A stretch of DNA of 64,000 bases, taken from positions 617,385 through 681,384 of the forward strand of contig JBAZSB010000001.1 in assembly GCA_041662625.1 (NCBI GenBank). Reading direction: 5' to 3'. The notes beneath the pieces were generated by a model. The model was not told the origin of the DNA. It made no database searches and worked only from the letters and a program-made list of their open reading frames with translations. Source of the stretch: Patescibacteria group bacterium (GTDB taxonomy: Bacteria > Patescibacteriota > Patescibacteriia > Buchananbacterales > UBA6539). Shown here in pieces: positions 6,782 through 57,767 of the stretch (position 1 is its first letter; each line of letters starts with the position of its first letter). The translations under genes were made by a program, and so were the position numbers.

Positions 6782-7354
6782 ATGAAACTAATCGTCGGCC
6801 TGGGTAATCCAGGCAAAAAATATGAAACCACCTGGCATAATGTCGGCTTTTTGGTAATTGATTTACTAAAAACCAAACAAGCCGGCGAATTTTTAAGCTG
6901 CAATAAAAGTAAAAAATTTAAAGCCGAAATTTGTGAAAACAACAGCCCGGAAGAAAAAATTATTTTAGCTAAACCCCAAACCTTTATGAACAACTCCGGC
7001 CAGGCTGTTAAAGCGATTGGACGATTTTATAAAATTAAGCCGGAAAACCTGTGGGTGATTCATGATGACATTGATTTGCCTTTGGGAAAAATCCGAATCT
7101 CCCAAAATGCCAGTGCCGCCGGCCATAAAGGGGTACAATCAATTATTGATGAAGTGGGGACGCAGGAATTCATTCGCTTTCGCCTTGGGATCCAGCCGAT
7201 TACTCCTTTAAAAATGCCAACGGAAAAATATGTCTTGCAAAAAATCGATTCAGAGAGTAAAGTAATTATTGATGAAGTAATAGAAAAAGTCCTGGCTGCT
7301 TTGGAAATCGCTTTAGCTCAGGGAGTAACTGAGGCCATGAATGAGTTTAATTAG
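6782..7354 (+). CDS. pth: peptidyl-tRNA hydrolase
   Basis: MKLIVGLGNPGKKYETTWHNVGF... canonical Pth N-terminus and HDD motif (VIHDDIDLPLGK). Confidence 0.9.
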   Translation: MKLIVGLGNPGKKYETTWHNVGFLVIDLLKTKQAGEFLSCNKSKKFKAEICENNSPEEKIILAKPQTFMNNSGQAVKAIGRFYKIKPENLWVIHDDIDLPLGKIRISQNASAAGHKGVQSIIDEVGTQEFIRFRLGIQPITPLKMPTEKYVLQKIDSESKVIIDEVIEKVLAALEIALAQGVTEAMNEFN

Positions 7355-7384
7355 AGCCGGGCTTTAAATCTGATAATTATCAAC

Positions 7385-7408
7385 ATAGCGCCAAGAGGCG
7401 CTTTTATT
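7385..7408 (+). terminator. intrinsic terminator after pth
   Basis: AGCGCC-aaga-GGCGCT hairpin followed by TTTTATT. Confidence 0.6.
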
Positions 7409-7667
7409 ATTGATGCAAAATGTCAAAAAAAATAGCCTCCAGAATCCTGCCTACCAGCGTAAGGCATATACCGAATAAACGGCACAGACCTCAGCTTGTG
7501 GCTACTAACCAGGCTAGGAGGGGTAACCTCGTATTCGCCGCTGGCAAACAGGATTCTGAAAGCTATTCTCTAAAGAATATAGTATGTTAACACTTTTCTT
7601 AAAAAATGTCAAGACACAACATATCCCAAGGCCAAAATCCGCTATTTTATTAGTAATTTTACAATAA

Positions 7668-8771
7668 ATGACAACTTTAATTATAAAAGATGAATTAAAA
7701 TATTGGCTGGCTTTTAATCAAATCCCAAAGATTGGCCCGGTCCGCTTTCAGAAACTTTTAAATTATTTCCCCGATCTGAAAACCGCTTGGCAAGCCGTAA
7801 GTCATGAGCTAATTAAAGCCGGGATTGAACCAGGGGTAGCAGAAGAACTAATCAGCTTAAGATTAGAAATTGATCCCGCTTTAGAATTAGAAAAAGTTGA
7901 AAAAATTAAAGTTCAAATCACAACAATCCTTGACCCTAACTATCCAAAGCTACTGAAAGAAATTTATGCTCCCCCACCCTTGATTTATCATTTTGGTAAT
8001 TTAGATTTGAATAATGATTTCCCTTTGGCGGTTGTGGGCCGGCGGAAAATCAGTCAGTACGGTAAACAAATAACCAGTGAAATTGTTTCCGAGTTAGCTA
8101 ATTGCAGTTTAACTATTGTCTCGGGTTTAGCTTTGGGAATTGATGCTTGTGCTCACCAGGCCACGCTACAAAACTCCGGAAAAACTGTGGCAGTTTTGGG
8201 CTCAGGCTTAAATCAGATTTACCCGGCTTCCAACCGTAAACTTGCCCAAGAAATTATTGAGTCCGGCGGTAGCATCATTTCTGAATTTCCTTTAGGCACA
8301 CCGCCCTACAAATCTAATTTTCCTCAAAGAAACCGAATTATCTCGGGCTTAAGTTTAGGTGTCTTAGTGACTGAAGCCGGCGAAAAATCCGGGGCGCTGA
8401 TCACCGCCGCCTACGCCTTGGAACAAAATCGAGAGGTCTTTGCGGTTCCGGGCAATATTTATAGTGCTGGTTCAATTGGCCCAAATAATTTAGTCCGGCT
8501 GGGTGCCAAATTAGTAACGGGTGCCGCTGACATTTTAGAAGTCTTAAACTTAAGCGAAGCAAAAGATTTTAAAAATACCAAAGAGCTAATCCCGGAAAAT
8601 GAAACCGAAAAAATCCTTTTGGAATTAATCACCACTGAGGCAGTCCACGTTGACAAATTAGTCCAGTGCGCTAGACTAGATATCAGCATTATTAATTCCA
8701 CTTTGAGCTTGATGGAAATGAAGGGAATGGTGAAAAACCTGGGTAATCAAAAGTATGTCAAAGCAAGATAA
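7668..8771 (+). CDS. dprA: DNA processing protein DprA (Smf)
   Basis: 367 aa; Rossmann-like DprA core (AVVGRRKISQYG..., GLALGIDACAHQ, GSGLNQIYPASN, GGSIISEFPLGT, RNRIISGLS). Confidence 0.85.
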   Translation: MTTLIIKDELKYWLAFNQIPKIGPVRFQKLLNYFPDLKTAWQAVSHELIKAGIEPGVAEELISLRLEIDPALELEKVEKIKVQITTILDPNYPKLLKEIYAPPPLIYHFGNLDLNNDFPLAVVGRRKISQYGKQITSEIVSELANCSLTIVSGLALGIDACAHQATLQNSGKTVAVLGSGLNQIYPASNRKLAQEIIESGGSIISEFPLGTPPYKSNFPQRNRIISGLSLGVLVTEAGEKSGALITAAYALEQNREVFAVPGNIYSAGSIGPNNLVRLGAKLVTGAADILEVLNLSEAKDFKNTKELIPENETEKILLELITTEAVHVDKLVQCARLDISIINSTLSLMEMKGMVKNLGNQKYVKAR

Positions 8772-8894
8772 AAGTTAATAAAAGTTTGTAAAAGCAAGAT
8801 AGAGTTTGTAAAAGCTAGTAATAGCCAGATAGTAACATCAACGTATCAACATAGCGCCAAAGCAAATTAATTAATAACAATTAACAAAATTATG

Positions 8895-9075
8895 GCGCTA
8901 ACAATGATAAATCCAAATGACAAAATCCAAATTTCCAATCAAATCCAAAATCCCAATGTCAAAAAACAATTTGATTTGGCCGAACGGACTGCTAAATTCG
9001 GCGAAAAAATAATTTGAGTTTTGAGCTTTGATATTGATTTGACATTGGAAATTTGGATTTTGACATTACCCTTTA
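8895..9075. repeat. AT-rich imperfect palindromic intergenic element (AAATCCMAA / TTKGGATTT arms) containing TTGACA boxes
   Basis: aaatccaaatgacaaaatccaaatttccaatcaaatccaaaatcccaatgtcaaaa ... ttgatttgacattggaaatttggattttgacatt; arms are reverse complements; same motif family as 30957-31095 and 36648-36790. Confidence 0.6.
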
Positions 9076-10396
9076 TTTAATGAAAAATTTATTACAAATT
9101 ACTTCAATGGACAAGAATCTTAAAAAATATCACCAGGCAGTCAATTATCTTGAATCAATTACCAATCTGGAACAACCCGACTACCTTAAAAAAACTAGTG
9201 GTCGGTCTTTATTTTTAAAACGGTTTAATTATTTTCTAAAGATTTTGGGTAACCCTCAGCAGGGCTTAAATTATATCCATATTGGCGGCACTTCGGGTAA
9301 AGGATCGACCGCCACGATGATTCAATCAATTTTAACTGAAGCCGGTTTTAAAACCGGGCTTTTTACCTCACCTTTTTTAACTACTTCGATTGAAAAAATT
9401 AAAATTGATGATTTATTGATTAGCCCTGATGAATTTACTAATTTAGTGGAAAAACTAAAGCCCGCCGTTGATAAAGCTTATCTGACTTCTCCCTATGGCC
9501 GGCCGTCGTATTTTGAAATTTTTACCGCCTTAGCATTTTTATATTTCCGGCAAAAAAAATGCGATTGGGTGGTTCTGGAAGTTGGCTTAGGCGGCCGCTA
9601 TGACGCCACTAATGTCATCCCACCGCCAAAAATTACAGTAATTAATTTAATCGGCTATGACCACGTTGAATTATTAGGCAAAACTTTGACTAAAATTGCC
9701 ACGGAAAAAGCCGGCATCATCAAGCCTAAAACCAGTTTTTTTACCACCGCCAAAAATAATAAAAAGGTCTTGGCAATTTTTCAAAAAGCCTGTAAAAAAA
9801 ATCAGGCAGAGTTTAATATTGTAGGCTGGCCAAAAACAGAATATCGGCTGAATTTACTGGGTAAACACCAGCAAGGCAATGCCGCTTTAGCTGCGGCGGT
9901 AGCCAAAAAACTTGGCATCAACGAAGCCAAAATTAAAGCCGGACTGGCCAAAGTTAAAATGCCTTGCCGCCTGGAAATTATTCAAAAAAATCCCCTAATA
10001 ATTTTGGATGGGGCCCATAACGTTTCTAAAATAAAGACAACAGTTGATTTTATAAGAAATTTGACATATCAAAAATTATATATTATTATTGCCCTAACTA
10101 AAGAAAGGAATGGATCAGATATTTTCAAAAAAATAAAATTGCTAGCCAATCATTCATTTGTCACCAGGTTTCAGTCAATCCACCACAAATGTTACCCGCC
10201 AAAAGATCTAGCTAAAAGAATAAATTCTAGAAAGCCAGTTGAAATTTGTCTTGATCCGCAAATAGCTCTAAACCAAGCGCTAAAAATCGCTAATAAAAAA
10301 GATTTAATTCTGGTGACTGGCTCATTCTATTTAGCCGGCGAGCTACGAACTAACTGGCGAAGTGAAGAAAAAATATTAAAAGAAAGGAAAGTCTAA
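9053..10396 (+). CDS. Mur ligase family protein, FolC-like (folylpolyglutamate synthase / dihydrofolate synthase-like)
   Basis: P-loop IGGTSGKGSTATMI, Mur-ligase middle and C-terminal (DGAHN) motifs; true start may be the downstream Met (MKNLLQ...). Confidence 0.65.
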   Translation: MDFDITLYLMKNLLQITSMDKNLKKYHQAVNYLESITNLEQPDYLKKTSGRSLFLKRFNYFLKILGNPQQGLNYIHIGGTSGKGSTATMIQSILTEAGFKTGLFTSPFLTTSIEKIKIDDLLISPDEFTNLVEKLKPAVDKAYLTSPYGRPSYFEIFTALAFLYFRQKKCDWVVLEVGLGGRYDATNVIPPPKITVINLIGYDHVELLGKTLTKIATEKAGIIKPKTSFFTTAKNNKKVLAIFQKACKKNQAEFNIVGWPKTEYRLNLLGKHQQGNAALAAAVAKKLGINEAKIKAGLAKVKMPCRLEIIQKNPLIILDGAHNVSKIKTTVDFIRNLTYQKLYIIIALTKERNGSDIFKKIKLLANHSFVTRFQSIHHKCYPPKDLAKRINSRKPVEICLDPQIALNQALKIANKKDLILVTGSFYLAGELRTNWRSEEKILKERKV

Positions 10397-25077: not shown

Positions 25078-25178
25078 TTGAATTTTTAATTTTGAATTTC
25101 GAATCAATTTCGAATATTAGAATATTAAATATTGAATTAAAATTCAAAATTCGAAATTATTTATTGATAAATTTGATT
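25078..25178. repeat. AT-rich palindromic intergenic element between parB and parA (AATATT / GAATTT motifs)
   Basis: tttgaatttcgaatcaatttcgaatattagaatattaaatattgaattaaaattcaaaattcgaaatt; shares aatattagaatatt..gaattaaaatt with 56335-56432. Confidence 0.55.
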
Positions 25179-27134: not shown

Positions 27135-27605
27135 ATGTTTCTCACAGTTCATGCGACACTTGGCACTATAATTGGGGAGTATACCGGCAACATCGGCCTG
27201 GCTTTTGCGGCGGGATTTGTTTCCCATTTTATTTTAGATATGATCCCCCACGGTGATCAAGATCTAATGACTAGAGAAAAATCAAACCTCGCAAAACAAG
27301 ATCTGGTTTTGACTGCCAAAATCGCTTCGGCTGATGGTCTGGTAATGATAATTTTTTTGGCCATACTCTATTGGCAACATATTATCCCTTTAACCCTACC
27401 AGTTTTAGCCGGCATTATTGGGAGTATCGCACCTGATTTTATCAATGGTTTTTATTTGCTGACTAAACATCCTTGGCTAAAAAAATATTCTTATTACCAT
27501 TTTGCCCTTCACGATTTTATAAAAATCCGGCTTTCAATTACTACCGGATTTATCTGCCAATTATTAATTGTAATCCTTCTAACTATAGCTTTAATAATTT
27601 TCTAA
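27135..27605 (+). CDS. membrane-bound metal-dependent hydrolase-like protein (YdjM/DUF457-like), paralog 2
   Basis: MFLTVHATLGTIIGEY...FVSHFILDMIPHGDQD...IAPDFING; tandem duplicate of preceding gene. Confidence 0.45.
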   Translation: MFLTVHATLGTIIGEYTGNIGLAFAAGFVSHFILDMIPHGDQDLMTREKSNLAKQDLVLTAKIASADGLVMIIFLAILYWQHIIPLTLPVLAGIIGSIAPDFINGFYLLTKHPWLKKYSYYHFALHDFIKIRLSITTGFICQLLIVILLTIALIIF

Positions 27606-28851
27606 ATTTTCCTGGCTGCTTAAACGGCCCAATTAAAACTAAGTTCAAATTTTGCTCCTGAATTAATTCTTGAGCAATTTTTTTAATCTGTCCTTTTTTA
27701 ACTGCAAAAACTTTTTTTAGCTTTTCTTCTGGCGTAGAAATTTTATTCAGTAATAATTCTTGCTTACCGTACCAATCGGCAACATTTTCTGAATCTTCCA
27801 ATTCTAGAACTAATTTACCTTTCAAAAATTCTTTGGCCGATTCTAGCTCTTTATCAGTAACACCTTGATCCCGAATTATTTTTAGTTCGGCTAAAATTAA
27901 ACTGATCGCTTGGTTAATCCTAGCTTTGTCTAAACCAGCCTGAACTAACAAAGCACCGACATCCTGATAGGCAGCAAAATCAGCTTTAATATAATAAGCC
28001 AAGCCGTATTTTTCCCTGACCGTGGTAAATAAACGCGAACTCATATTCCCACCCAAAATAACGGCTAATAAATAAAGGGGATAAATTTTTGGATCATTCA
28101 GAGAATAGCTGGGGAAGCCCAGGCCAAGCTGGACTTGTTCGGTCGCTTTAAAAAATAATTCAATTTTTGGCTTATTTTGGCTAATTTTAATCTTTTTAAA
28201 ACCATTTTTATTTTTGTGACCCGTATTATTACCAAAGTATTCTTTAGCCAAAGCCCTGACTTTATTTTTATTAAAATTACCGGAAACTGTTAAAATCATT
28301 TTGGCCGGCTGATAAAATTTATTTTTATAATTTAAAATAGCGCGGCGAGAAATTTTTTTAATCACCTCTTTTGGACCAGAGATTATCCAACCTAAAGAAT
28401 TATCCCCAAAAATAGTTTTTTCAAACAGCGCCCCTAAATAGATTAAGGGGTTATCCTGATACATATTAATCTCCTCAATAATTACTCCCCTTTCTTTATT
28501 AATTTCTTGGACGGCAAAAGTTGAATTAAAAAGCATGTCGGAAAGCAAATCAAAAGCCAGCTCAATTTCTTCAGAGGCAACTTTTACATAATAACCAGTA
28601 TGATCTTTGCTGGTAAAAGCATTATATTCGGCGCCGACCGAATCAAGCGCTTTACTAATATCTAAACTCGTAGGCCGACGCTTAGTGCCTTTGAACATTA
28701 GATGCTCAATAAAATGAGAAGCCCCGTTGATACTTCGACCTTCATAACGCGAACCAACCGGTAGTAATACCAAAACCGTCACCGCCTTAGTTTCTTTAAG
28801 CGGCGCAGTGATTAGAGTTAGGCCATTTTTAAGTTTGGTTTTTGAATACAT
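27583..28851 (-). CDS. M16 family zinc peptidase (insulinase / PqqL-like)
   Basis: HxxEH zinc motif in SHFIEHLMFKGT; 422 aa two-lobed M16 architecture. Confidence 0.85.
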   Translation of the reverse strand: MYSKTKLKNGLTLITAPLKETKAVTVLVLLPVGSRYEGRSINGASHFIEHLMFKGTKRRPTSLDISKALDSVGAEYNAFTSKDHTGYYVKVASEEIELAFDLLSDMLFNSTFAVQEINKERGVIIEEINMYQDNPLIYLGALFEKTIFGDNSLGWIISGPKEVIKKISRRAILNYKNKFYQPAKMILTVSGNFNKNKVRALAKEYFGNNTGHKNKNGFKKIKISQNKPKIELFFKATEQVQLGLGFPSYSLNDPKIYPLYLLAVILGGNMSSRLFTTVREKYGLAYYIKADFAAYQDVGALLVQAGLDKARINQAISLILAELKIIRDQGVTDKELESAKEFLKGKLVLELEDSENVADWYGKQELLLNKISTPEEKLKKVFAVKKGQIKKIAQELIQEQNLNLVLIGPFKQPGKFRKLLKL

Positions 28852-28854
28852 AAA

Positions 28855-28945
28855 GAAGTAGCGAGTTAAGCGAGTTAAGTAAATTCAGTGAAATCAGCTG
28901 AACTCGCTTAACTTGCTGAACTCGCTTAACTTGCTATCGGATTCT
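28855..28945. repeat. gene-less inverted/direct repeat element of the GCGAGTTAAG family (same arms as the cassette at 51540-52030)
   Basis: agcgagttaagcgagttaag-taaattcagtgaaatcagctga-actcgcttaacttgctgaactcgcttaacttgct; arms reverse-complementary; each arm internally duplicated. Confidence 0.6.
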
Positions 28946-30345
28946 CAAAATATACTTAATTTTTCTTCAAAATAATCTTTTAGATCACCGACTTTAATTC
29001 TTTCCTGCTTCATCGTATCCCGATCGCGAACCGTGACCGCTTTGTCTTCTAAACTTTCGAAATCAACGGTTACACAATACGGCGTACCAATTTCATCTTG
29101 GCGGCGGTATCTTCGGCCAATTGAAGCCACTTCATCATACTGGCAAACCCAGTTTTGCCGCAAAGTATTAAAAATTTCTTTCGCTGGTTTAGCCAATTCA
29201 GGTTTTTTGGATAAAGGCAAAACGGCAATTTTTATCGGCGCTAATCTTTTATCAAATTTCATTACTACTTCCAATTCTTTGTTTGATTCAGTGGTGGTTG
29301 TCCGGCCGCCGGAAATTTCCGTGTAAGCATCAACTAAAACTGCCAACGTGGAACGGTCGGCGCCAGCCGAAGGCTCAATGACATAAGGAATGAATTTTTT
29401 GCCATCCTCCTCAGTATAGCTCAGGTCTTCTCCGGAAAATTTAGCATGCTGGCTCAAATCAAAATCCTGCCGGTTAGCAATGCCTTCCAGTTCTGACCAG
29501 CCGGCAAAAGGAAAATTATATTCGACATCAGAGCAGGCCTTGGCATAGTGAGCAAGTTCATCCTTCTCGTGCGGCCGTAAACGCAAATTTTCTTTTTTGA
29601 TTCCTAAAATTTTAATATACCAATTTATTCTTTCTTGCAGCCAATATTCATAGTATTTATCTGCCTCTTTGGGTTGGCAGAAATATTCACATTCCATCTG
29701 CTCAAATTCGCGGGTGCGGAAAATAAAATTACCCGGCGTCACCTCGTTGCGAAACGATTTACCGATTTGGGCAATGCCAAACGGCAGTTTCAAGCGCATT
29801 GAATCTTTAACATTTTTAAAATTGACAAAAATCCCTTGCGCCGTTTCCGGCCGCAGATAAACCGTTGCGCTTTCTTCTTCCAAAGGGCCCATAAAAGTTT
29901 TAAACATTAAATTAAACTGCCGCTCTTCGGTTAATTCCCCGCCACACTCCGGACAAACCGGCTTTTTTTTAGGCTTTTCTTTCATTGTCCCTAAGTCTGG
30001 CTTGGCCGAAATCGGGGCTAATAAGTGATCAGACCGAAATCGCTTTTTACATTTTTTACAGTCAACGAGCGGGTCAGTAAAACTTTTTAAATGGCCTGAA
30101 GCCTCCCAGGTTTTGGGGTGCATTAAAATAGAGGCATCCAAACCAACCACGTCATCGCGCTTTTGCACCATTTCTTGCCACCAAAGCCGCTTGATATTAT
30201 TCTTCAGCTCCACCCCTAGCGGACCATAGTCATAGAAAGAATTGAGGCCGCCATAAATCTCAGAAGACTGAAAAAGAAAGCCTCGGCGCTTACAAAGCGA
30301 AACGAGTTTACTCATTAAATCATTACTTTCTTGTTTCTTTGTCAT
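28945..30345 (-). CDS. glyQS: glycine--tRNA ligase (dimeric class II, GlyQS type)
   Basis: 466 aa; class II motifs ([21 protein letters not shown]; [10 protein letters not shown]), anticodon-binding C-terminus. Confidence 0.9.
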
Positions 30346-36642: not shown

Positions 36643-36647
36643 TTATT

Positions 36648-36790
36648 TAAAATTACAAATCACAAATTCCAAGCTCCAAACAAATTCCAAATTATAATTT
36701 CCAAAATCCAAAATAGTAATTCTCGGGTTTTTGGATTTGTAATTTTGGTTATTGTAATTTGTTTGGAATTTGTAATTTTGAATTTGGTGA
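36648..36790. repeat. AT-rich imperfect palindromic element (right flank of surface-protein module)
   Basis: aaattacaaatcacaaattccaagctccaaacaaattccaaatt...taattctcgggtttttggatttgtaattttgg...tttggaatttgtaattttgaatttggtg; 27/28 identity with the 3' arm of 30957-31095. Confidence 0.65.
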
Positions 36791-38898: not shown

Positions 38899-39351
38899 AT
38901 GCCCACTATTACTACAAATAAAAAAGCTCTCCATGACTTCCAGGTGTTAGAAAAGCTTGAAGCCGGAATTATTTTGACCGGCCCAGAAGTTAAATCAGTT
39001 AAGGCAGGTCAAATCAATCTAAAAGGTGGCTATATTAGTATCGATAACAAAAGCCAGGTTTGGTTAACCGGCGTTCATATCGCCCATTACAAGCCAGCCA
39101 GTGCCATTCAGACTAACTATAACCCCAGCCGAACCAGAAAACTCCTGCTCAATAAAAAAGAGATTAATTACCTCCGGGGTAAGGAAAAGGAAAGAGGCTT
39201 GACAATTTTACCAATTTCTGTGTATACTAAAGGCAATCTAATTAAGCTGGAAGTTGGCTTAGTCAGAGGTAAAAAGCAGTATGACAAGCGCCAGACCATA
39301 AAAAAACGGGAGATCGACCGCGAGATCAGGCGCCATATAAAACGCAAATAG
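38899..39351 (+). CDS. smpB: SsrA-binding protein SmpB
   Basis: 150 aa; KALHDFQVLEKLEAGIILTGPEVKSVKAGQINLKGGYISI...RKLLLNKKEINYL...GLTILPISVY; basic C-tail. Confidence 0.9.
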   Translation: MPTITTNKKALHDFQVLEKLEAGIILTGPEVKSVKAGQINLKGGYISIDNKSQVWLTGVHIAHYKPASAIQTNYNPSRTRKLLLNKKEINYLRGKEKERGLTILPISVYTKGNLIKLEVGLVRGKKQYDKRQTIKKREIDREIRRHIKRK

Positions 39352-39413
39352 CAAATCGCTTATTGCTAATCGTAAAATGATTTGCTATTGGCGATTGGCG
39401 ATTTGCCAAATAC

Positions 39414-39802
39414 GGGGATGTCTAAAATCGATAGGATCTAGATTTAAAGTCCTCAGGTCGAGCATTGGTCTACTTGGCTCGCTAATCTCAATGACCAAAC
39501 AAATAAGTGCCAAATCACTTGTCGCTAAGGTAAAAAGTGCTTTCAGCTCTTTAGCCTTAGCTCCCGCTTTGGCCTAAAAACCCAGAGCCATCAGCCCGGT
39601 GATGCCTAATAGCCGGTCCCTGGTGTCAATAATTAGGCTGCCGCAAGTTAATGCCTCATTGATTTGCATAAGCACTTGAGGCTTTGGCTTTTGGGGTTTT
39701 GTCAGTTTTTGACCCAAAGGCCGAAAATAAAAATTGACTAAACCTGTAAAACTATTTTGAATCTAATTCTAGACAGGGGTGCAAATCCCCTCATCTCCAC
39801 CA
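39414..39802 (+). ncRNA. ssrA: tmRNA (ssrA)
   Basis: 5' GGGGATG... pairs with 3' ...CATCTCC-A-CCA giving G3:U70 (Ala identity); T-arm GGGG-TGCAAAT-CCCC; internal tag frame ...AFSSLALAPALA-TAA ending 39577; immediately downstream of smpB. Confidence 0.8.
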
Positions 39803-41174: not shown

Positions 41175-41197
41175 ATTACAATAAAAAATTCCACAGC

Positions 41198-41244
41198 GGA
41201 GGCGTACCCGCCCGCTTCGCGTTCGGGCAAGGCTCAGTTGGTTA
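41198..41244 (+). pseudogene. tRNA-Asp 5' fragment (acceptor 5' strand + D-loop) interrupted by a GC hairpin insertion
   Basis: GGAGGCGTA [cccgcccgcttcgcgttcgggcaag] GCTCAGTTGGTTA then diverges; preceded by ttccacagc, which is the reverse complement of gctgtggaa at 41686-41694. Confidence 0.6.
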
Positions 41245-41271
41245 TCTCTTTAAAAAAATAAAGTGCAAAAC

Positions 41272-41345
41272 GGAGGCGTAGCTCAGTTGGTTAGAGCGTC
41301 TGCCTGTCACGCAGAAGGTCGTGGGTTCGAGCCCCATCGTCTCCG
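41272..41345 (+). tRNA. tRNA-Asp (anticodon GTC)
   Basis: GGAGGCGTAGCTCAGTTGGTTAGAGCGTCTGCCTGTCACGCAGAAGGTCGTGGGTTCGAGCCCCATCGTCTCCG; flanked by aaagtgcaaaa / ctttgcacttt inverted extension; no CCA. Confidence 0.85.
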
Positions 41346-41395
41346 CTTTGCACTTTATTTTTTATTATCCAAAAGCCAATTATAAAATTAGGGGG

Positions 41396-41510
41396 GTCAC
41401 GCAGATTTACCCGCCGTAGCGCAAGCATAGGCGGGAGGTCGTGGGTTCTGCGCCACCTTAATTAATAAAAAAGGCGCACCAGCCTCTGGCTGGGAGCCCC
41501 ATCGTCTCCG
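41396..41510 (+). pseudogene. tRNA-Asp 3'-half copy with two GC-hairpin insertions (after anticodon stem and in T-loop)
   Basis: GTCACGCAGA [tttaCCCGCCgtagcgcaagcataGGCGGG] AGGTCGTGGGTTC [TGCGCCaccttaattaataaaaaaGGCGCAccagcctctggctgg] GAGCCCCATCGTCTCCG + ctttgcactttatttttt. Confidence 0.6.
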
Positions 41511-41542
41511 CTTTGCACTTTATTTTTTATTATCCAAAAATC

Positions 41543-41685
41543 GAGGGTTCGCCTGCCCCGCCCTAAGTCTTTAACCAAAAGACTAAATACTCATTTAAAG
41601 TAAGGCGTCAGCCGTTTCCGAGAGATTAAGTTAGAATACTAAATTTACTCTTTCGGACTTAGGGCGGGGAGCCCCATCGTCTCCG
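41543..41685 (+). pseudogene. tRNA-Asp T-arm/acceptor 3' copy with a ~110-nt insertion bounded by 14-bp inverted repeats (MITE-like)
   Basis: GAGGGTTCG cctg [CCCCGCCCTAAGTC ... GACTTAGGGCGGGG] AGCCCCATCGTCTCCG ctgtggaa. Confidence 0.6.
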
Positions 41686-41877
41686 CTGTGGAATTTTTTT
41701 TGTTAGCCAAAAGCGTCTGCCTGCCTGCACCGCCATTACTATCAACCCAGCCACCCCAAAAGGGCGGTTTTTAGTTAATCCCGATATGTATTTACTACGC
41801 CCTGGAAGCCACTTGACAAAAAATGCTATTCCATTATACTAAATAATACCACCTAAATAATAATTGAATATTGGAAT

Positions 41878-46419: not shown

Positions 46420-49380
46420 ATGACCAAAAAATCAATCATTTTTTCCTTAACTGTAGCTTTTTTTGTTTTAGTGACATGTTTTTATTCTCTAACTTTTGCC
46501 CGGGCGGAAAATGACTATAACGGTAAAATTGTTAAAATGAATGGCTTAACCAGTCTTTATTATGTTGCTTCAAACGGAAAACGCTATGTCTTTCCGAGTG
46601 AAAAAATTTTTAAATCGTGGTTCCCGGATTTTAGTGATGTTATCACCATAGATTCCGGCGACCTGGCAGATATTCCTTTGGTTGGCAATGTCCTTTATCG
46701 CCCTGGCGTACTCCTGATTAAAATTAATACTGATCCAAAAATTTATGCCGTTACAAAAACCGGCATCTTGCGTTGGATTGAAACTGAAGCAATCGCCAAA
46801 GCACTCTATGGCGACAGTTGGAATCTTCTCGTTGATGATGTGTCTGATTCATTTTTTACTAATTATGCTATTGGAGAATCAATTGATGAGGTATCGGACT
46901 TCAATGCTGATGAAGAAGTCGAAGATACGGATACAATCGAAGCTAATCATGGTTTAGCTTTGGGCAATGCCAAACACGCCCGGACCAAAAAATGTGTTAT
47001 GTCAGGATCTATCCGGGTATGTGCGTCAAACGATAATAGTGGTAATGAAAGTAATAATAACAATAATGGTGATCCTTATATTACTGCGATTGAAGTTTCT
47101 AATAGCGGAGAGGCGGGATATATTGATGTTGATGACACTATCACTATTACTTTCAGTGAAGCTATTGACCCAAAATCAATTAATGCTAATCTCGAAAGAG
47201 GCGGCTATGTTAATGACGTTACTTATTCAAACACCGGTGGAGTCACGATTTCCTCATCAGGGAAAGTAACCGTTAATAACATTGCCTCTTTTAGCATGGG
47301 AACAGTTGATCTTTCGGAAACTTTCACGGCTAAATTAGACCTAAGTTCTAACGGAAAAATTTTAACCATTACCTTAACAAACGGAAGTGATGTTGAAATC
47401 GTCAGCGAAAATTTTGATAACGCTACTCAGGTTGGTGGTACTATCAAAGATTTGGCCGGAAAAGTAATGCCGAGCGATTCCAGTATTAATGATCCGACCG
47501 GGACTTTTGGCGGGGATAACAGCAGTAATCCTTATATAACTAAAATAGAAGTTGTTGATGGCGGAGAAGCGGGATATATTGATATTGATGACACTATCAC
47601 TATTACTTTCAGTGAAGCTATTGACCCAAAATCGATTAATAGCAACTTGGGAGCAGGCAATCAGGTTACCGGCATCTCATATTCACAAACCGGAGGAGTC
47701 AAAATTTCGTCATCCGGAAAAGTGACTATTAACGGTATTGCTTCTTTTGACATGGGAGCAGTTGATCTTTCGGAAACTTTCACTTCCAAACTCGCTCTTA
47801 GCTCTAATGGCAAAATTTTAACTATTACTTTGACTAGCGGCAGTGATGTCGAGATCGTTAACGAAGATTTTGATAATGCGAGTCAAACCGGCGGCACTAT
47901 TAAGGATTTAGCCGGTGATGGAATGGAAAGCGATTCCAGTATTAATGATCCGACCGGGACTTTTGGCGGAAACCTTTATAATAGCAGTGGCAATCCTTAT
48001 ATAACTAATATTAAGGTTTCCAACGGCGGCACAGAAGGATTTATTGACGCCGGTGACATTATTGAAATTACTTTTAATGAAGCCATTGACCCAAAATCAA
48101 TTAATAGCATTCTTGGGGCCGGAAGCTATATCACCGGCGTTTTGTCCACATCAAATGGCGGAGTCAGAGTTTCTTCATCAGGGGAAGTAATTATTAATAA
48201 CATTGTTTCTTTCGACATGGGTTCGATTGATTATTCAGAAACTTTCACGGCTAAACTAGCCCTTGATTCTAATAGCAAGGTTTTAACTATAACTTTGACC
48301 GGCGAAAACGATGCTGAAATCACCAACGAAGACTTCGACGTTGTTAGCCAGCTCGGCGGCTTTGTCAAAGATCTAGATGGTAATGCAATGGAAAGTGATT
48401 CTGGTATTAGTGATTTATCAGGAACTTTCGGAGGCAACTTTGATGATAGCAGTGGTAGTGGCAGTAACCCTTACATAACCGAAATTAAAGTTTCTAACGG
48501 CGGAGAAACGGGATATATTGATACCAGCGACAAAATTGCTATTACTTTCAGCGAAGCTATTGAGCCGGAATCAATTAATAGTGGACTTGACAGAGATGAT
48601 TCCGTTAATGGTATTTCGTATTCCCAAACCGGCGGAGTAAGAGTTTCGTCATCGGGAAAAATAACAATCAACAATATTGCTTCTTTTGACATGGGTTCAG
48701 TTGACGGTTCAGAAACTTACACTGTCAATTTGGCCCTCAATTCCAATGGCAGAGTTTTAACCATAACTTTGACTAGCGGCAGTGATGTTGAAATTACTGA
48801 TGAAGATTTTAGTGATACCAGCCAGACCGGTGGGATTATCGAAGATGAGGATGGTAATGAAATGCCTAGCGATACCAGTATTGGTGATCCGACTGGGACT
48901 TTTGGCGGAAAACTTTATAATAGTGGTGATGATAATAGTGCACCTTATATCACTGACATTCAAATTTCTAATGGCGGTGATTCCGGGTATATTGATACTA
49001 ATGACACGATTGAAATTACTTTCAGCGAAGCTATTGAACCAGAATCAATCAGCAGTAATCTTGAAGCCGGAAGCTATGTCACTAGTATTCCATATACATC
49101 AACTGGCGGAGTCAACGTTTTTGCCGCCGGCGCATTGTTTGTCGAAGGAATCTTTACCTTTGACGTCGGATCAGTTGAAAATTCTGGAATTTTTACCACT
49201 AAACTTGCCCTCAGTTCTAACGGTAAGATCTTGACCATTACTTTGACCAGTGGAAGTGATATCAAAATCACTAGTAAAAATTTTGACAGCACTAGCCAAA
49301 CCGGTGGCACCATCGAAGACGAATCTGGTAATGAAATGATTAGTAATTCCAGTATTAATGATCCGGATGGAAGTTTCTAG
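46420..49380 (+). CDS. large membrane-anchored surface protein with six tandem ~150-aa repeats
   Basis: Start at ATG 46420 (MTKKSIIFSLTVAFFVLVTCF); N-domain then 6x (NPYIT.I.VSNGGE.GYID..D.I.ITFSEAI.P.SIN....GISYSQTGGV.VSSSGK.TINNIASFDMG.VD.SETFT.KLAL.SNGK.LTITLT.GSDVEI..E.FD..SQTGG.I.D..G..M.SD.SI.DPTGTFGG). Confidence 0.7.
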   Translation: MTKKSIIFSLTVAFFVLVTCFYSLTFARAENDYNGKIVKMNGLTSLYYVASNGKRYVFPSEKIFKSWFPDFSDVITIDSGDLADIPLVGNVLYRPGVLLIKINTDPKIYAVTKTGILRWIETEAIAKALYGDSWNLLVDDVSDSFFTNYAIGESIDEVSDFNADEEVEDTDTIEANHGLALGNAKHARTKKCVMSGSIRVCASNDNSGNESNNNNNGDPYITAIEVSNSGEAGYIDVDDTITITFSEAIDPKSINANLERGGYVNDVTYSNTGGVTISSSGKVTVNNIASFSMGTVDLSETFTAKLDLSSNGKILTITLTNGSDVEIVSENFDNATQVGGTIKDLAGKVMPSDSSINDPTGTFGGDNSSNPYITKIEVVDGGEAGYIDIDDTITITFSEAIDPKSINSNLGAGNQVTGISYSQTGGVKISSSGKVTINGIASFDMGAVDLSETFTSKLALSSNGKILTITLTSGSDVEIVNEDFDNASQTGGTIKDLAGDGMESDSSINDPTGTFGGNLYNSSGNPYITNIKVSNGGTEGFIDAGDIIEITFNEAIDPKSINSILGAGSYITGVLSTSNGGVRVSSSGEVIINNIVSFDMGSIDYSETFTAKLALDSNSKVLTITLTGENDAEITNEDFDVVSQLGGFVKDLDGNAMESDSGISDLSGTFGGNFDDSSGSGSNPYITEIKVSNGGETGYIDTSDKIAITFSEAIEPESINSGLDRDDSVNGISYSQTGGVRVSSSGKITINNIASFDMGSVDGSETYTVNLALNSNGRVLTITLTSGSDVEITDEDFSDTSQTGGIIEDEDGNEMPSDTSIGDPTGTFGGKLYNSGDDNSAPYITDIQISNGGDSGYIDTNDTIEITFSEAIEPESISSNLEAGSYVTSIPYTSTGGVNVFAAGALFVEGIFTFDVGSVENSGIFTTKLALSSNGKILTITLTSGSDIKITSKNFDSTSQTGGTIEDESGNEMISNSSINDPDGSF
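47060..49380 (+). repeat. six tandem ~440-bp DNA repeats encoding the protein repeats
   Basis: Recurring ccttatataac..., gggatatattga..., cagtgaagctattgacccaaaatc...; repeat units visibly diverged. Confidence 0.7.
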
Positions 49381-51272: not shown

Positions 51273-51482
51273 TTAAGCTTTCTGGGTTTTGGCCTTAAAG
51301 GTGGACTCCAAGACATGGTAACGCGGTTGTTTGCTGTTGTTGTCGTCTTCATTCCATTTCTTGTTTTGAAAAACGGCAACCCGCTTGCCATCAATCTCGC
51401 CAGTTAAAGCCGGCCCTTTTTCGCTCTTGGCCTTATTGACCCAAAGCGCTCCGAGCCTGTTCGAACTTTGATTTTGTGCCAT
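51273..51482 (-). CDS. small protein, DUF736-like (tentative)
   Basis: 69 aa; LGALWVNKAKSEKGPALTGEIDGKRVAVFQNKK...KQPRYHVLES. Confidence 0.3.
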   Translation of the reverse strand: MAQNQSSNRLGALWVNKAKSEKGPALTGEIDGKRVAVFQNKKWNEDDNNSKQPRYHVLESTFKAKTQKA

Positions 51483-51539
51483 AGGGTTATGGTTAGTTAA
51501 GAATAAGCATGGATTAGTTTAAAAATTAGAAAGTTTGTT

Positions 51540-51600
51540 TAGCGAGTACAGTTTATACAGCGAGTTTGGCGAGTTAAGTTTTGCTATTTTTTATTTGGCA
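51540..51600. repeat. left inverted repeat of the four-helix-bundle gene cassette
   Basis: agcgagtacagtttatacagcgagtttggcgagttaagtttt; reverse-complement partner at 51985-52030. Confidence 0.55.
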
Positions 51601-51948
51601 TTGAACCCAAGCGTTAAGCATTTTGCCAACCTCATCACATAGACTTATTATTTTTTCATAAGCTTCGTCTGATATATAATTTAAATCTTTAGCAATCAAT
51701 AGTTGATATTTGGTTTCCTCCAAAGAACCTCTGGAAATACTATAAAAGTGCAGGCTTTCTTTAACTGATAATCTACTAAAACCTTCAACAATATTTGAGG
51801 CAATAGAAACCGCTGCCCGGCGCAGTTGCTGAACTAAAGCATATTTTTCGTCTAAAGGAAAATTCTTAGTCATCCGGTAAATTTCCAATACCAATTTATG
51901 AGCTTTATTCCAAACCTTTAGTTCCTTGAAAATTTTGACATTTGCCAT
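51574..51948 (-). CDS. four-helix-bundle protein of the 23S rRNA intervening-sequence protein family
   Basis: MANVKIFKELKVWNKAHKLVLEIYRMTKNFPLDEKYALVQQLRRAAVSIASNIVEGFSR... Confidence 0.85.
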   Translation of the reverse strand: MANVKIFKELKVWNKAHKLVLEIYRMTKNFPLDEKYALVQQLRRAAVSIASNIVEGFSRLSVKESLHFYSISRGSLEETKYQLLIAKDLNYISDEAYEKIISLCDEVGKMLNAWVQCQIKNSKT

Positions 51949-51984
51949 AAGTTTATATTTATTGAGTGAAATTAAGTGCCCATA

Positions 51985-52030
51985 AACTGTACTGACTGAA
52001 CTCGCTGACCTCGCTGTACTCGCTATTTAA
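51985..52030. repeat. right inverted repeat of the four-helix-bundle gene cassette
   Basis: actgtactgactgaactcgctgacctcgctgtactcgct; contains the reverse complement of agcgagtacag and cagcgagtt. Confidence 0.55.
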
Positions 52031-52147
52031 TACAAAAAACGCCCTTTTTTGGCGCTATGTTGATTGGCTTAAGTTTTACTATTCTTAGGTTAGCAAAGCC
52101 CAATTGACCTGTCAAGGCCGCTTTATGCTATAATAAAGCTAACCTAT

Positions 52148-52492
52148 ATGACCAGCATCTACGAAAAAATTTTTGGCAAAGTGAAAAAGGGTAGCCTTTA
52201 CACCAGCCAGGGTAACTTCGGCGGCTCTTATAGCTCTTCCAGCCTGCGTTCCTCAATGCAGAAGTTTAGGAATACACTTTACAGCGGCGTGGCCGGCAAA
52301 AATCTTTCCAAAGAAAATGCTGACTATATCATTTCCGTTATTGAACCCCATTTAAAAAATTTGCCGCTTGGCGGAAAATTATCCTATTCCACAAAACTGG
52401 CAATGCGGGAAAAACTCTGGCAATCAGTGCTAGCCGGAAAGCTTAGTAAAGAAGACTTTGAAGACGCCAAACACATAATTGAATTGTTCTGA
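52148..52492 (+). CDS. hypothetical protein
   Basis: 114 aa, Ser/Gly-rich N-region, no recognised motif. Confidence 0.35.
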   Translation: MTSIYEKIFGKVKKGSLYTSQGNFGGSYSSSSLRSSMQKFRNTLYSGVAGKNLSKENADYIISVIEPHLKNLPLGGKLSYSTKLAMREKLWQSVLAGKLSKEDFEDAKHIIELF

Positions 52493-56334: not shown

Positions 56335-56432
56335 GAATAAAATTAATTTTTAATTTAGAATTTAGAATTTTGATTCAATATTAAAATATTAGAATATTGA
56401 ATTAAAATTAGAATTTAAAAATTCTAGCTAGT
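56335..56432. repeat. AT-rich palindromic intergenic element (AATATT / GAATTT family)
   Basis: ttaatttttaatttagaatttagaattttgattcaatattaaaatattagaatattgaattaaaattagaatttaaaaattc. Confidence 0.5.
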
Positions 56433-57767
56433 ATGAATAATAATATCGAACTAAAGACAACTGAAAAAACAATCGAAAAGAAAAAATTTCTTTTTGTCTC
56501 TTATGATGCCTTAATCAGTGATATCGCCTGGCAAGTAATTAAGGAAGGTCATGAAGCCAAATATTATATCGAAAGTAAAATGGAAAATGATATTGCCGAC
56601 GGATTTGTTCCCAAAACCGATGACTGGGAAAAAGAATTGGATTGGGCCGATATCGTAATTTTTGATGATGTTTTAGGTATGGGTAAAATGGCCCAAAAAG
56701 CCCGCAAAAAAGGCAAATTAGTCATTGGTGGCACGCCCTATTCCGATATGCTGGAAGACGATCGCTCATTTGGCCAGGAAGAATTAAAAAGATTTGGTAT
56801 CCCTATCATCCCCTACCAAAGCTTTACCTCGTTTGACGAAGCCATCAGCTATGTCCAGCAAAATCCGGCCCGCTATGTCATCAAACCCAGTGGCGAAGCC
56901 CAAAACATCAAACTCTTCCTTTTTGTCGGTGCGGAAGATGACGGCAAAGATGTGATTCAGGTTTTAACTGCCTACAAAAAGATCGCTAAAAAAGAAATCC
57001 AGGTATTCCAGCTCCAGAGATGGGTCAATGGGGTCGAGGTGGCGGTTGGCGCTTTTTTCAACGGCAAAGAATTTGTTTACCCCATTAACGTTAATTTTGA
57101 ACATAAAAAACTATTCCCCAGAAACATCGGGCCTTCCACCGGCGAAATGGGCACCAGTATGTTTTGGAGCATGCCTAACCGCATCTTTAATCTGACCCTA
57201 AAAAAGATGGAGGCCAAACTAGCCGAAGAAGGCTATACTGGTTACATTGACCTCAGCTGTATTGTCAATAATAATGGGATTTATCCTTTGGAATTTACCG
57301 CCCGGTTCGGCTACCCCACCATCAGCATCCAGCAGGAAGGCATTTTAATGCCCATTTCTGAATTCCTTTATAAACTGGCGGAGGGTACTTTAACCAAATT
57401 TCGAACCCGAAGCGGTTTTCAAATCGGAGTCCGGATTGTGGCGCCGCCCTTTCCCTACGGCTCGGATATTAAAATTTTGGACAAACATTTCCGCGAAAAA
57501 GTTGTGATTTTCAAAAAACCGAATTTTGAAGGCGTTCATATTGAAGATGTAAAATTGGTTGACGGCGAATGGGTGCTAACCGGTACTTCTGGTGTATCCC
57601 TAATTATCGTCGGGTTGGGCCAGACAATGAAACAAGCTCAGCATCAGGTTTACCAAAGAATTACAAATGTTTTGATTCCGGATATGTATTACCGCACTGA
57701 TATCGGTGACCGCTGGTTTGAAGACAGCGACAAATTACACAACTGGGGTTATTTAAGAGAAGCCTAA
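56433..57767 (+). CDS. ATP-grasp enzyme, phosphoribosylamine--glycine ligase (PurD)-like
   Basis: 444 aa; N / ATP-grasp / C domain order; YVIKPSGEAQ..., ...EFTARFGYPT... resembling PurD EFNCRFGDPE. Confidence 0.5.
   Translation: MNNNIELKTTEKTIEKKKFLFVSYDALISDIAWQVIKEGHEAKYYIESKMENDIADGFVPKTDDWEKELDWADIVIFDDVLGMGKMAQKARKKGKLVIGGTPYSDMLEDDRSFGQEELKRFGIPIIPYQSFTSFDEAISYVQQNPARYVIKPSGEAQNIKLFLFVGAEDDGKDVIQVLTAYKKIAKKEIQVFQLQRWVNGVEVAVGAFFNGKEFVYPINVNFEHKKLFPRNIGPSTGEMGTSMFWSMPNRIFNLTLKKMEAKLAEEGYTGYIDLSCIVNNNGIYPLEFTARFGYPTISIQQEGILMPISEFLYKLAEGTLTKFRTRSGFQIGVRIVAPPFPYGSDIKILDKHFREKVVIFKKPNFEGVHIEDVKLVDGEWVLTGTSGVSLIIVGLGQTMKQAQHQVYQRITNVLIPDMYYRTDIGDRWFEDSDKLHNWGYLREA

Follow-up and report, generated by a model that had tools for sequence, protein, structure and literature searches.

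The 64,000-nucleotide stretch of a Patescibacteria group bacterium genome analysed here (hereafter the window, numbered from its first base) carries at 51540-52025 a cassette in which a single gene for a four-helix-bundle protein is enclosed by a pair of inverted repeats, which we call the 5′ and 3′ arms with respect to the gene. The flanks of the cassette are protein-coding: its neighbours are a leucine-rich repeat (LRR) protein, two small open reading frames (ORFs) of 69 and 114 aa, and a cation-efflux pump. The 124-aa cassette protein is basic (pI 9.2) and is a member of PF05635 (23S_rRNA_IVP; 144.1 bits, E 2e-42, cutoff 33.8) and of TIGR02436, the "four helix bundle protein" family (130.1 bits, E 4e-38, cutoff 24). 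An AlphaFold model computed with 36 homologues as input gave a clean four-helix bundle (pLDDT 95.8). The nearest solved structure is XCC0516 (2GSC, TM 0.88-0.96), followed by BT_0352 (2RLD, TM 0.75-0.87), and the predicted model agrees with the four-helix bundle of both.

Next in the Foldseek ranking comes Avd, the accessory protein of diversity-generating retroelements (DGRs), either alone (4DWL) or in the DGR ribonucleoprotein (8UB7 and related entries), and weaker profile matches also point to Avd (PF22296, E 1e-12; NF033474, E 9e-14). Avd is a homologous four-helix bundle that is basic, oligomeric and bound to RNA and a polymerase. On this homology the gene could be read as the avd gene of a retroelement, or as its remnant. 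We consider such an assignment extremely improbable, as the NF033474 score of 51.7 bits is below the equivalog cutoff of 80, no reverse-transcriptase-sized ORF and no template/variable repeat (TR/VR) pair were found within 3 kb, and the repeats that flank the gene are short tandem units as opposed to a TR/VR pair.

Each arm of the cassette is 42 nt long and is built of 9-nt units, GCGAGTNNN, that follow one another in phase. Since the outer sequences are such phased units in opposite orientation, the arms are inverted arrays of 9-nt units. The TAA stop codon of the gene falls within the 3′ arm. The arms are 71% complementary overall, with 83% in the inner 24-nt core and perfect pairing of the outermost 12 nt (TAGCGAGTACAG / CTGTACTCGCTA). 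None of 2000 shuffles reached the inverted-repeat score, and P was ~0.001 when the score was compared with random window positions of the same geometry. In the predicted RNA fold, the arms are paired in both the minimum free energy and the centroid structure, so that terminal inverted repeats close a stem around the insert, as is expected of rRNA intervening sequences (IVSs) and likewise of transposable elements, including miniature inverted-repeat transposable elements (MITEs). The initial annotation had described a four-helix-bundle gene within inverted repeats and would have dropped the idea had the arms lacked significant similarity on alignment; the statistics above and the family membership of the protein bear the description out.

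The units of the arms recur at one other place in the window, a 78-nt near-perfect palindrome that occupies the 93-nt gap between the co-directional genes for glycyl-tRNA synthetase (GlyRS; 28945-30345, minus strand) and an M16 peptidase (27583-28851, minus strand). Allowing at most one mismatch, GCGAGTTAAG has 9 copies in the window where 3.3 ± 1.9 are expected, and 8 of the 9 are in the cassette and this hairpin. Two or more GCGAGT-like units chained in 9-nt phase were found in the window only in these two elements, plus one probable chance match; GCGAGT at 47790 and 47878 was rejected as ordinary coding sequence. The end pattern TAGCRAGT-N3-G..., which was picked post hoc after the data were seen, marks exactly four element ends, all inward-facing, with 0.01 expected. 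The hairpin folds with -35 to -40 kcal/mol (z -6.2 to -6.7) and has exact words of 14-20 nt in common with the arms of related cassettes (control maximum 11), including a 20-mer from the 3′ arm of the related cassette L084a. Because of these shared words, we regard the hairpin as homologous to the cassette arms. The annotation was thus right that the GlyRS-M16 element repeats the arm sequence without a gene, as it shares both its units and its TAGCRAGT ends with the cassette. It also took this element for an empty site, which it is not: the hairpin contains no spacer or ORF remnant, and its sequence places it in the repeat family as a member without a gene (MITE-like or like the REPIN or STRR elements discussed below), not as an unoccupied target. 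A real cassette-free site exists elsewhere in the window, as described below. In relatives, the GlyRS-M16 gap holds hairpins of quite different units (L173 11384-11459; L175 5381-5477; L numbers designate the fetched loci), only a small GC hairpin with an AT-rich stem (L172 10283-10374), or neither gap nor hairpin (L174 6222-6232). The differing hairpins suggest turnover at a fixed site.

We then scored flanks across the family, using 80 metagenome loci and 80 loci from species-representative genomes that encode homologues, the latter set holding no match closer than 58%. The upstream flank of each gene was aligned to the reverse complement of its downstream flank, with permuted flanks as the control. 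At the metagenome loci the median score was 34 versus 15 for permuted flanks, and 34 of 69 exceeded the 99th percentile of the control; at the genome loci the values were 29 versus 16, with 26 of 65 above that percentile. A score of at least 35 was reached by 42% of 132 four-helix-bundle genes versus 2% of 440 other genes from the same loci (p 3e-34). Nearly all arms consist of short units in tandem, mostly with a period of 7 (or 14), then 8, 9 and 10, and their sequences vary by lineage, with CAGGAGT, CAGAATT, CAGTAGT and CAGAAGA types recurring. The 5′ arm is G-rich at 39 of 42 loci, a property that holds on both strands because the structure is an inverted repeat. Hosts include phyla of the Candidate Phyla Radiation (CPR), Bacteroidota, Acidobacteriota, Nitrospirota, Planctomycetota, Chloroflexota, Bacillota and Proteobacteria, as well as a Calothrix and the metagenome-assembled genome (MAG) of one anaerobic methanotrophic (ANME) archaeon. 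Viral and proviral contigs carry cassettes too, with strong arms in 11 of 14. Gene-less arrays of the locus-specific unit lie near cassettes at 13 of 56 loci (~3 expected); a similar gene-less array is present in L088 as well, and in the Calothrix locus (L146) five copies of the 14-mer GCAGAATTCAGGAG stand beside the four-helix-bundle gene.

The architecture is therefore family-wide, and the arm type travels with the protein across phyla. Loci with similar arms encode more similar proteins (62% versus 44% identity, p 3e-11), and near-identical arms accompany proteins of 79-85% identity in distant phyla. In one such case, cassettes of Geobacteraceae and Victivallales have the same arms and proteins that are 79% identical, which indicates that arms and gene were transferred horizontally as a unit. 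The arms also enclose a second cargo family, unrelated to the four-helix bundle: all four GxxExxY / PDDEXK_3 genes (TIGR04256; PD-(D/E)XK-like) among the fetched loci lie within inverted short-period arrays, with scores of 36-43 (Table 1). PADLOC gave no defence-system match for either cargo. The flank screen also recovered, at L151 4283-4987 in a Microgenomates MAG, a gene for an IS200-like Y1 transposase of the RAYT type (REP-associated tyrosine transposase, where REP stands for repetitive extragenic palindrome) with REP-like hairpins (CAAGGACAGTCCTT...) on either side. As a genuine RAYT gene with its hairpins, this locus serves as a positive control for the method. Two housekeeping genes were seen between inverted heptamer arrays as well (truA-like, L011 1178-1921; ssb-like, L092 1654-2121); these are probably two separate gene-less arrays, one on each side.

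One explanation for phased units of this kind is that they are binding sites of the encoded protein. An oligomer would bind the 7-9-nt units (YAG core), as RNA or DNA, each subunit taking one unit in the manner of TRAP and its GAG repeats, and would so autoregulate or package its own transcript, leaving the hairpin and the inverted symmetry secondary. The recurrence across phyla of phased units with a semi-conserved core agrees with this explanation, as do the correlation between arm type and protein similarity, the G- or purine-rich 5′ arm, the basic protein, the five chains in both crystal structures, and the binding of RNA by Avd within the ribonucleoprotein. It does not sit well with arms of the same kind around GxxExxY genes of unrelated fold, with the gene-less arrays of unrelated units that occur side by side in a genome with just one intact four-helix-bundle gene, or with a number of units per arm that varies. 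On balance, we find it rather improbable.

Proteins of this family were said in the initial annotation to be normally encoded inside 23S rRNA IVSs, which proved wrong, as only one of the ~170 loci that we fetched (L063) is located in rRNA. Given this, being free-standing is the rule for the four-helix-bundle family and not the exception, with free-standing copies outnumbering rRNA copies by more than 100 to 1 among the sampled loci. Published cases of a four-helix-bundle gene wedged in an operon between cmr3 and cmr2 (PMC3936711) and between gmk and nadD (PMC5524665) fit this picture. At L063, a metagenomic locus, Rfam aligns bacterial LSU rRNA at 1513 bits. The gene has the same orientation as the rRNA and precedes the position-1930 motif by ~700 nt, as would fit an insertion at the classical helix-45 site. 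Its arms, arrays of heptamers, score 77, among the highest of all loci. The Coxiella IVS has three tandem GACAGAT heptamers upstream of its S23p ORF, in a number that varies among strains, and RNase III cuts at the first heptamer, within the terminal stem (PMC4990558). A survey of CPR bacteria reported 23S_rRNA_IVP ORFs scattered across 16S and 23S insertion sites (bioRxiv 10.1101/2024.02.27.582315). Together, the arms of L063, the Coxiella heptamers with their stem cleavage and the CPR survey lead us to conclude that the free-standing cassette and the ORF-bearing IVS belong to one kind of element, and the annotation's description of the cassette as IVS-like is upheld.

The likeness to the 23S rRNA IVSs of Coxiella burnetii (S23p) and Leptospira consists of a PF05635 protein and of terminal inverted repeats that form a stem with its ORF in the loop. 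As in Coxiella, where the IVS is regarded as selfish, tandem short repeats adjoin the S23p/IVP-family ORF, both in the cassette and at L063. Unlike an IVS, the cassette is not inserted in a 23S rRNA helix such as 25 or 45 but stands between protein-coding genes, its units are 9 nt as opposed to 7 nt, and a terminator-like motif precedes it. An Rfam search of the window at gathering thresholds returned tmRNA and tRNAs only, with no rRNA.

Comparisons with related genomes show that gain, loss and replacement affect arms and gene jointly. The homologues with 81% identity lie after pth and after dprA, one with 76% identity after pth, and one with 67% identity between the genes for AdoHcy hydrolase and comEC. 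Their contexts are unrelated, yet the arms all consist of GCRAGTTNA-type units, mostly with TAGC...GCTA ends, and despite the differing contexts the stop codon is fused to the first 3′-arm unit in all related cassettes. Window positions 6782-10396 are syntenic with the pth/dprA contigs of relatives. Three of these (L084, L086 and L087) carry a full cassette, arms and gene, at a site where the window has none; the cassette-free site lies between the terminator-like motif of pth and a conserved structured element, and no solo hairpin is left there, the arms and the gene being missing together. After dprA, the window retains a decayed cassette that keeps several parts of its intact counterpart L084b (Table 1), with the ORF replaced by a second inverted-repeat element (8907-8939 / 9044-9076) of AAATCCAAA-type units. 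A 41-aa ORF at 8894-9017 was considered as a four-helix-bundle fragment and is not claimed here, as neither Pfam nor tblastn supported it. Finally, L193 6907-7420 is orthologous to window positions 51483-52147, with a cation-efflux protein that is 91% identical and flanking small ORFs ~85-90% identical at the DNA level, and it holds a different four-helix-bundle cassette, whose protein is merely ~25-30% identical and whose arms are TTGTTCAAT-type 9-mers. No empty orthologous site was found for the 51540-52025 cassette itself, as L193 is differently occupied and synteny is lost in L194 and L195. The presence or absence of the pth-dprA cassette, the exchange at L193 and the differing contexts amount to an insertion polymorphism of the kind expected of a transposable element or MITE, and they support the mobility that the annotation had suggested.

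These comparisons bear on two further explanations. Arms and hairpins might be ordinary local structures, such as terminators or mRNA-stabilising hairpins, that arise by slippage in situ, with the similarity of the two window loci due to a genome-wide simple-sequence bias and with no mobility. Hairpins do occur in the intergenic gaps of operons, Coxiella strains do differ in heptamer copy number, and the differing GlyRS-M16 hairpins of relatives could be turnover in situ. However, the pattern of an intrinsic terminator (a GC hairpin and a T run) is absent from the arms and from the GlyRS-M16 hairpin, with no T runs following either, and only 2% of other genes have such flanks. Such an origin would also leave unexplained why a cassette is present or absent as a whole, why an unrelated cassette occupies the orthologous L193 site between flanks that are ~85-90% identical, and why near-identical arms come with 79-85% identical proteins in distant phyla. 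This explanation is already largely contradicted and we hold it to be highly improbable.

Alternatively, the hairpin could be the primary element and the gene a passenger, with autonomous STRR-like hairpins into whose loops small genes home and with the GlyRS-M16 hairpin as a potential target. The occurrence of two unrelated cargo families in the same kind of arm would be accounted for, as would the unit type that different cassettes and gene-less hairpins share within one genome, the excess of gene-less hairpins over cassettes in the window, and the presence of ORF-less and ORF-bearing insertions at the same rRNA sites in CPR bacteria (bioRxiv 10.1101/2024.02.27.582315). Against it stand the joint loss of arms and gene at the pth-dprA site with no solo hairpin remaining, the fusion of the stop codon to the first 3′-arm unit in all related cassettes, and the covariation of arm type with protein similarity across phyla. 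We judge it unlikely that the hairpin came first in this way.

We favour the explanation that the cassette is a free-standing, selfish mini-cassette of the same kind as the ORF-bearing 23S rRNA IVSs, and we consider this explanation, together with the mechanism that follows, to be probable. A gene for a basic, Avd-like four-helix-bundle protein of ~120 aa sits in the loop of a long imperfect hairpin, whose arms are inverted short tandem arrays, 9-mers of GCGAGTNNN in this Buchananbacteria-like lineage of Patescibacteria and mostly heptamers elsewhere. Gene-less hairpins of the same units are present in the same genome. Once transcribed, in most cases as read-through of an upstream gene with the same direction, the arms may pair as a double-stranded RNA stem. 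By analogy with the Coxiella IVS, for which RNase III excision has been shown (PMC4990558), RNase III is predicted to cut this stem and release the ORF RNA. We propose that insertion is tolerated in rRNA and operons because RNase III would excise the ORF RNA. The protein would serve the propagation or maintenance of the element; it is probably an oligomeric nucleic-acid-binding scaffold, with a pentamer suggested by analogy with Avd.

The read-through step draws on the orientation of neighbouring genes. In 108 of 122 cases (88.5%) across the family, the neighbouring gene upstream runs in the same direction, versus a baseline of 343 of 501 (68.5%, p 3e-6), and we infer from this bias that transcription usually enters the cassette from that gene. 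Several observations weigh against the favoured explanation, beginning with the transcription of this particular cassette. Here the neighbouring upstream gene is oriented divergently, a hairpin resembling a terminator immediately precedes the 5′ arm, and no sigma-70-like promoter was seen ahead of that arm. For these three reasons the transcription of the arms at this locus is putative. In addition, complementarity of the arms is merely 71% overall, and their mismatches lack a G-U wobble bias (43 sense, 50 antisense, 101 transversions), so the likeness of the arms looks like that of common repeat units as opposed to the outcome of selection for base pairing. The cassette contains no transposase, integrase or recognisable nuclease motif, its sole ORF being the four-helix-bundle protein, although a transposase might act in trans. 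No target-site duplication is definable, since alignment to the diverged empty site leaves ~20 unmatched bases; the element ends read TA/TAGC...GCTA/TA and are themselves palindromic. Lastly, the comparisons are with metagenome contigs whose relationships were inferred from a few marker proteins.

The hairpin upstream of the 5′ arm adjoins a conserved motif. Near the cassette, a GC hairpin followed by a T run was found only in this separate motif, at 52056-52038 on the minus strand. The sequence that precedes it, (A/G)TCAACATAGCGC(C), occurs in the window at 7380-7391 (+), 8846-8857 (+) and 52052-52063 (-), and in relatives at L084, L086, L088, L091 and L193, and in many cases a GC hairpin and a T run come after it. 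In ~176 kb of sequence from the clade, 12 real copies were counted. Every copy is on the strand of the downstream gene, 38-115 nt upstream of it, and 8 or 9 of the 12 precede four-helix-bundle or GxxExxY cassette genes. The motif may act as leader or promoter, serve as a portable terminator, or mark a hot spot of integration.

Several known systems resemble the cassette in part. As in REPIN-RAYT systems, a gene stands between inverted copies of a dispersed, lineage-specific hairpin of its genome, and gene-less copies are found in intergenic regions. Unlike these systems, the cargo is not an HUH/Y1 (IS200-like) transposase, with a true RAYT found only at L151; the arms are tandem arrays of 7-9-mers and not a single REP palindrome; and the cassettes are multi-copy with two alternative cargo families. 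The GlyRS-M16 hairpin resembles a MITE in being a small intergenic palindrome that shares its ends (TAGCRAGT...ACTYGCTA) and units with a gene-bearing element. It departs from a MITE in that the parent element has no known transposase or definable target-site duplication and the hairpin no internal remnant of the cassette. The arrays also recall the short tandemly repeated repetitive (STRR) sequences of cyanobacteria and the arrays of Geobacter, both of which are dispersed intergenic tandem heptamers to nonamers, often in inverted pairs with variable spacing. In Geobacter metallireducens, paired tandem 7-9-mers were described as "global regulator / IHF binding sites" (PMC2700814), and the class 3 unit MTYCTGA of that study is the reverse complement of the CAGGAGT/CAGAATT units around four-helix-bundle genes here. 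In the papers searched, the STRR and Geobacter descriptions are not tied to four-helix-bundle genes, GxxExxY genes or rRNA IVSs, and we make the link by sequence pattern only.

From these likenesses, one can tentatively speculate that array-enclosed four-helix-bundle (IVP) and GxxExxY genes form one cross-phylum class of mobile mini-cassettes, which would unite ORF-bearing rRNA IVSs, STRR arrays, Geobacter sites and CPR intergenic hairpins and whose members would integrate and replace one another at preferred intergenic hot spots by means of the arrays and of either the Avd-like oligomer or the PD-(D/E)XK-like cargo, with no known transposase. In the literature that we searched, these families are not linked to flanking tandem arrays save for the single case of Coxiella, although curated descriptions or subscription journals may mention such a link. 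The arms of repeat arrays across the family, the second cargo family and the connection to gene-less heptamer arrays are therefore apparently undescribed in that literature, which does not exclude a description elsewhere.

The questions of where rRNA IVSs originate and what the S23p/IVP protein does date from the early 1990s and are still unanswered. Should the rRNA copies represent just a small visible part of a much larger population of free-standing cassettes with repeat arms, which also has gene-less derivatives and a second cargo family, both questions would be open to comparison and testing: one could ask which features are transferred jointly, what ligand the Avd-like protein has, whether excision by RNase III is what allows the element to persist within essential transcripts, and how hairpins and cassettes replace one another at fixed intergenic sites. 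Such a population would also provide a common explanation for heptamer arrays that carry different names in cyanobacteria and Geobacter. On a practical level, assemblies are likely to break at the arms, which can also be misread as regulatory sites.

Table 1. Positions of the cassette parts, related elements and short-period palindromes in the window, and of the GxxExxY genes at other loci
Feature	Position	Strand	Remarks
3′ arm	51540-51581	-	Reverse complement: TA GCGAGTACA GTTTATACA GCGAGTTTG GCGAGTTAA GTTT
Four-helix-bundle gene, 124 aa	51574-51948	-	PF05635/TIGR02436, Avd-like
Spacer/leader, 5′ arm to ATG	51949-51983	-	Partly similar in related cassettes
5′ arm (gene strand)	51984-52025	-	TA GCGAGTACA GCGAGGTCA GCGAGTTCA GTCAGTACA GTTT; phased 9-nt units, G-rich
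TCAACATAGCGCC motif, then GC hairpin and T run	52035-52063	-	Directly upstream of 5′ arm; precedes cassette genes of relatives
Cassette-free site	7355-7440	+	Full cassette (arms and gene) here in L084, L086, L087
Decayed cassette after dprA	8760-9076	+	5′ arm (AAGCAAGATAA units), TCAACATAGCGCC motif and ATGGCG kept relative to intact L084b
Gene-less hairpin (GlyRS-M16)	28859-28936		Units GCGAGTTAA, GCAAGTTAA, GCGAGTTCA; ends TAGC...GCTA
Gene-less short-period hairpin	36645-36786		AAATTCCAA-type units, same unit family as 8907-9076; z -5.7
Gene-less hairpin	39351-39406		GCGATTG-type heptamers; -28.9 kcal/mol, z -6.4
AT-rich short-period palindrome	25081-25158		AATTTCGA-type units; weak fold signal, z -1.9
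AT-rich short-period palindrome	56352-56423		AATTTAG heptamers; z -3.6
GxxExxY gene with inverted arrays	L088 4122-4508		
GxxExxY gene with inverted arrays	L132 3189-3593		
GxxExxY gene with inverted arrays	L112 8567-8965		
GxxExxY gene with inverted arrays	L118 2560-2922		

Other observations concern the surroundings of these elements. The small ORFs on either side of the cassette (51273-51482, minus strand, 69 aa; 52148-52492, plus strand, 114 aa) are both conserved in L001, L091 and L193 and have no Pfam or NCBIfam match; the 114-aa ORF has a near-consensus promoter, TTGACC-17-TATAAT. A tblastn search for another four-helix-bundle gene in the window gave only a weak match at 56820-56990 (-); it falls within a plus-strand ORF of 444 aa and was rejected as spurious. 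Between pth and dprA, window positions 7431-7567 (+) and L084 712-850 contain a conserved structured-RNA candidate of ~135 nt, closed by a 29-nt stem that encloses three hairpins. For these two sequences RNAalifold gave 36 pairs, 5 of them compensatory and all 5 in one hairpin, and no Rfam family matched the candidate at E<=1. Rfam searches by E-value with the cassette, the hairpin and the pth-dprA spacer returned nothing, or sub-threshold matches to hairpin-like eukaryotic miRNA models, which we dismissed. The hairpin of GCGATTG-type heptamers stops 8 nt upstream of the tmRNA gene (39414-39802). Within 41183-41699, the tRNA gene 41272-41345 is enclosed by near-perfect inverted repeats of 22-26 nt (AAAAAATAAAGTGCAAAACGGAGGCG / CGTCTCCGCTTTGCACTTTATTTTTT and a related pair), of which one arm recurs at 41503-41528.

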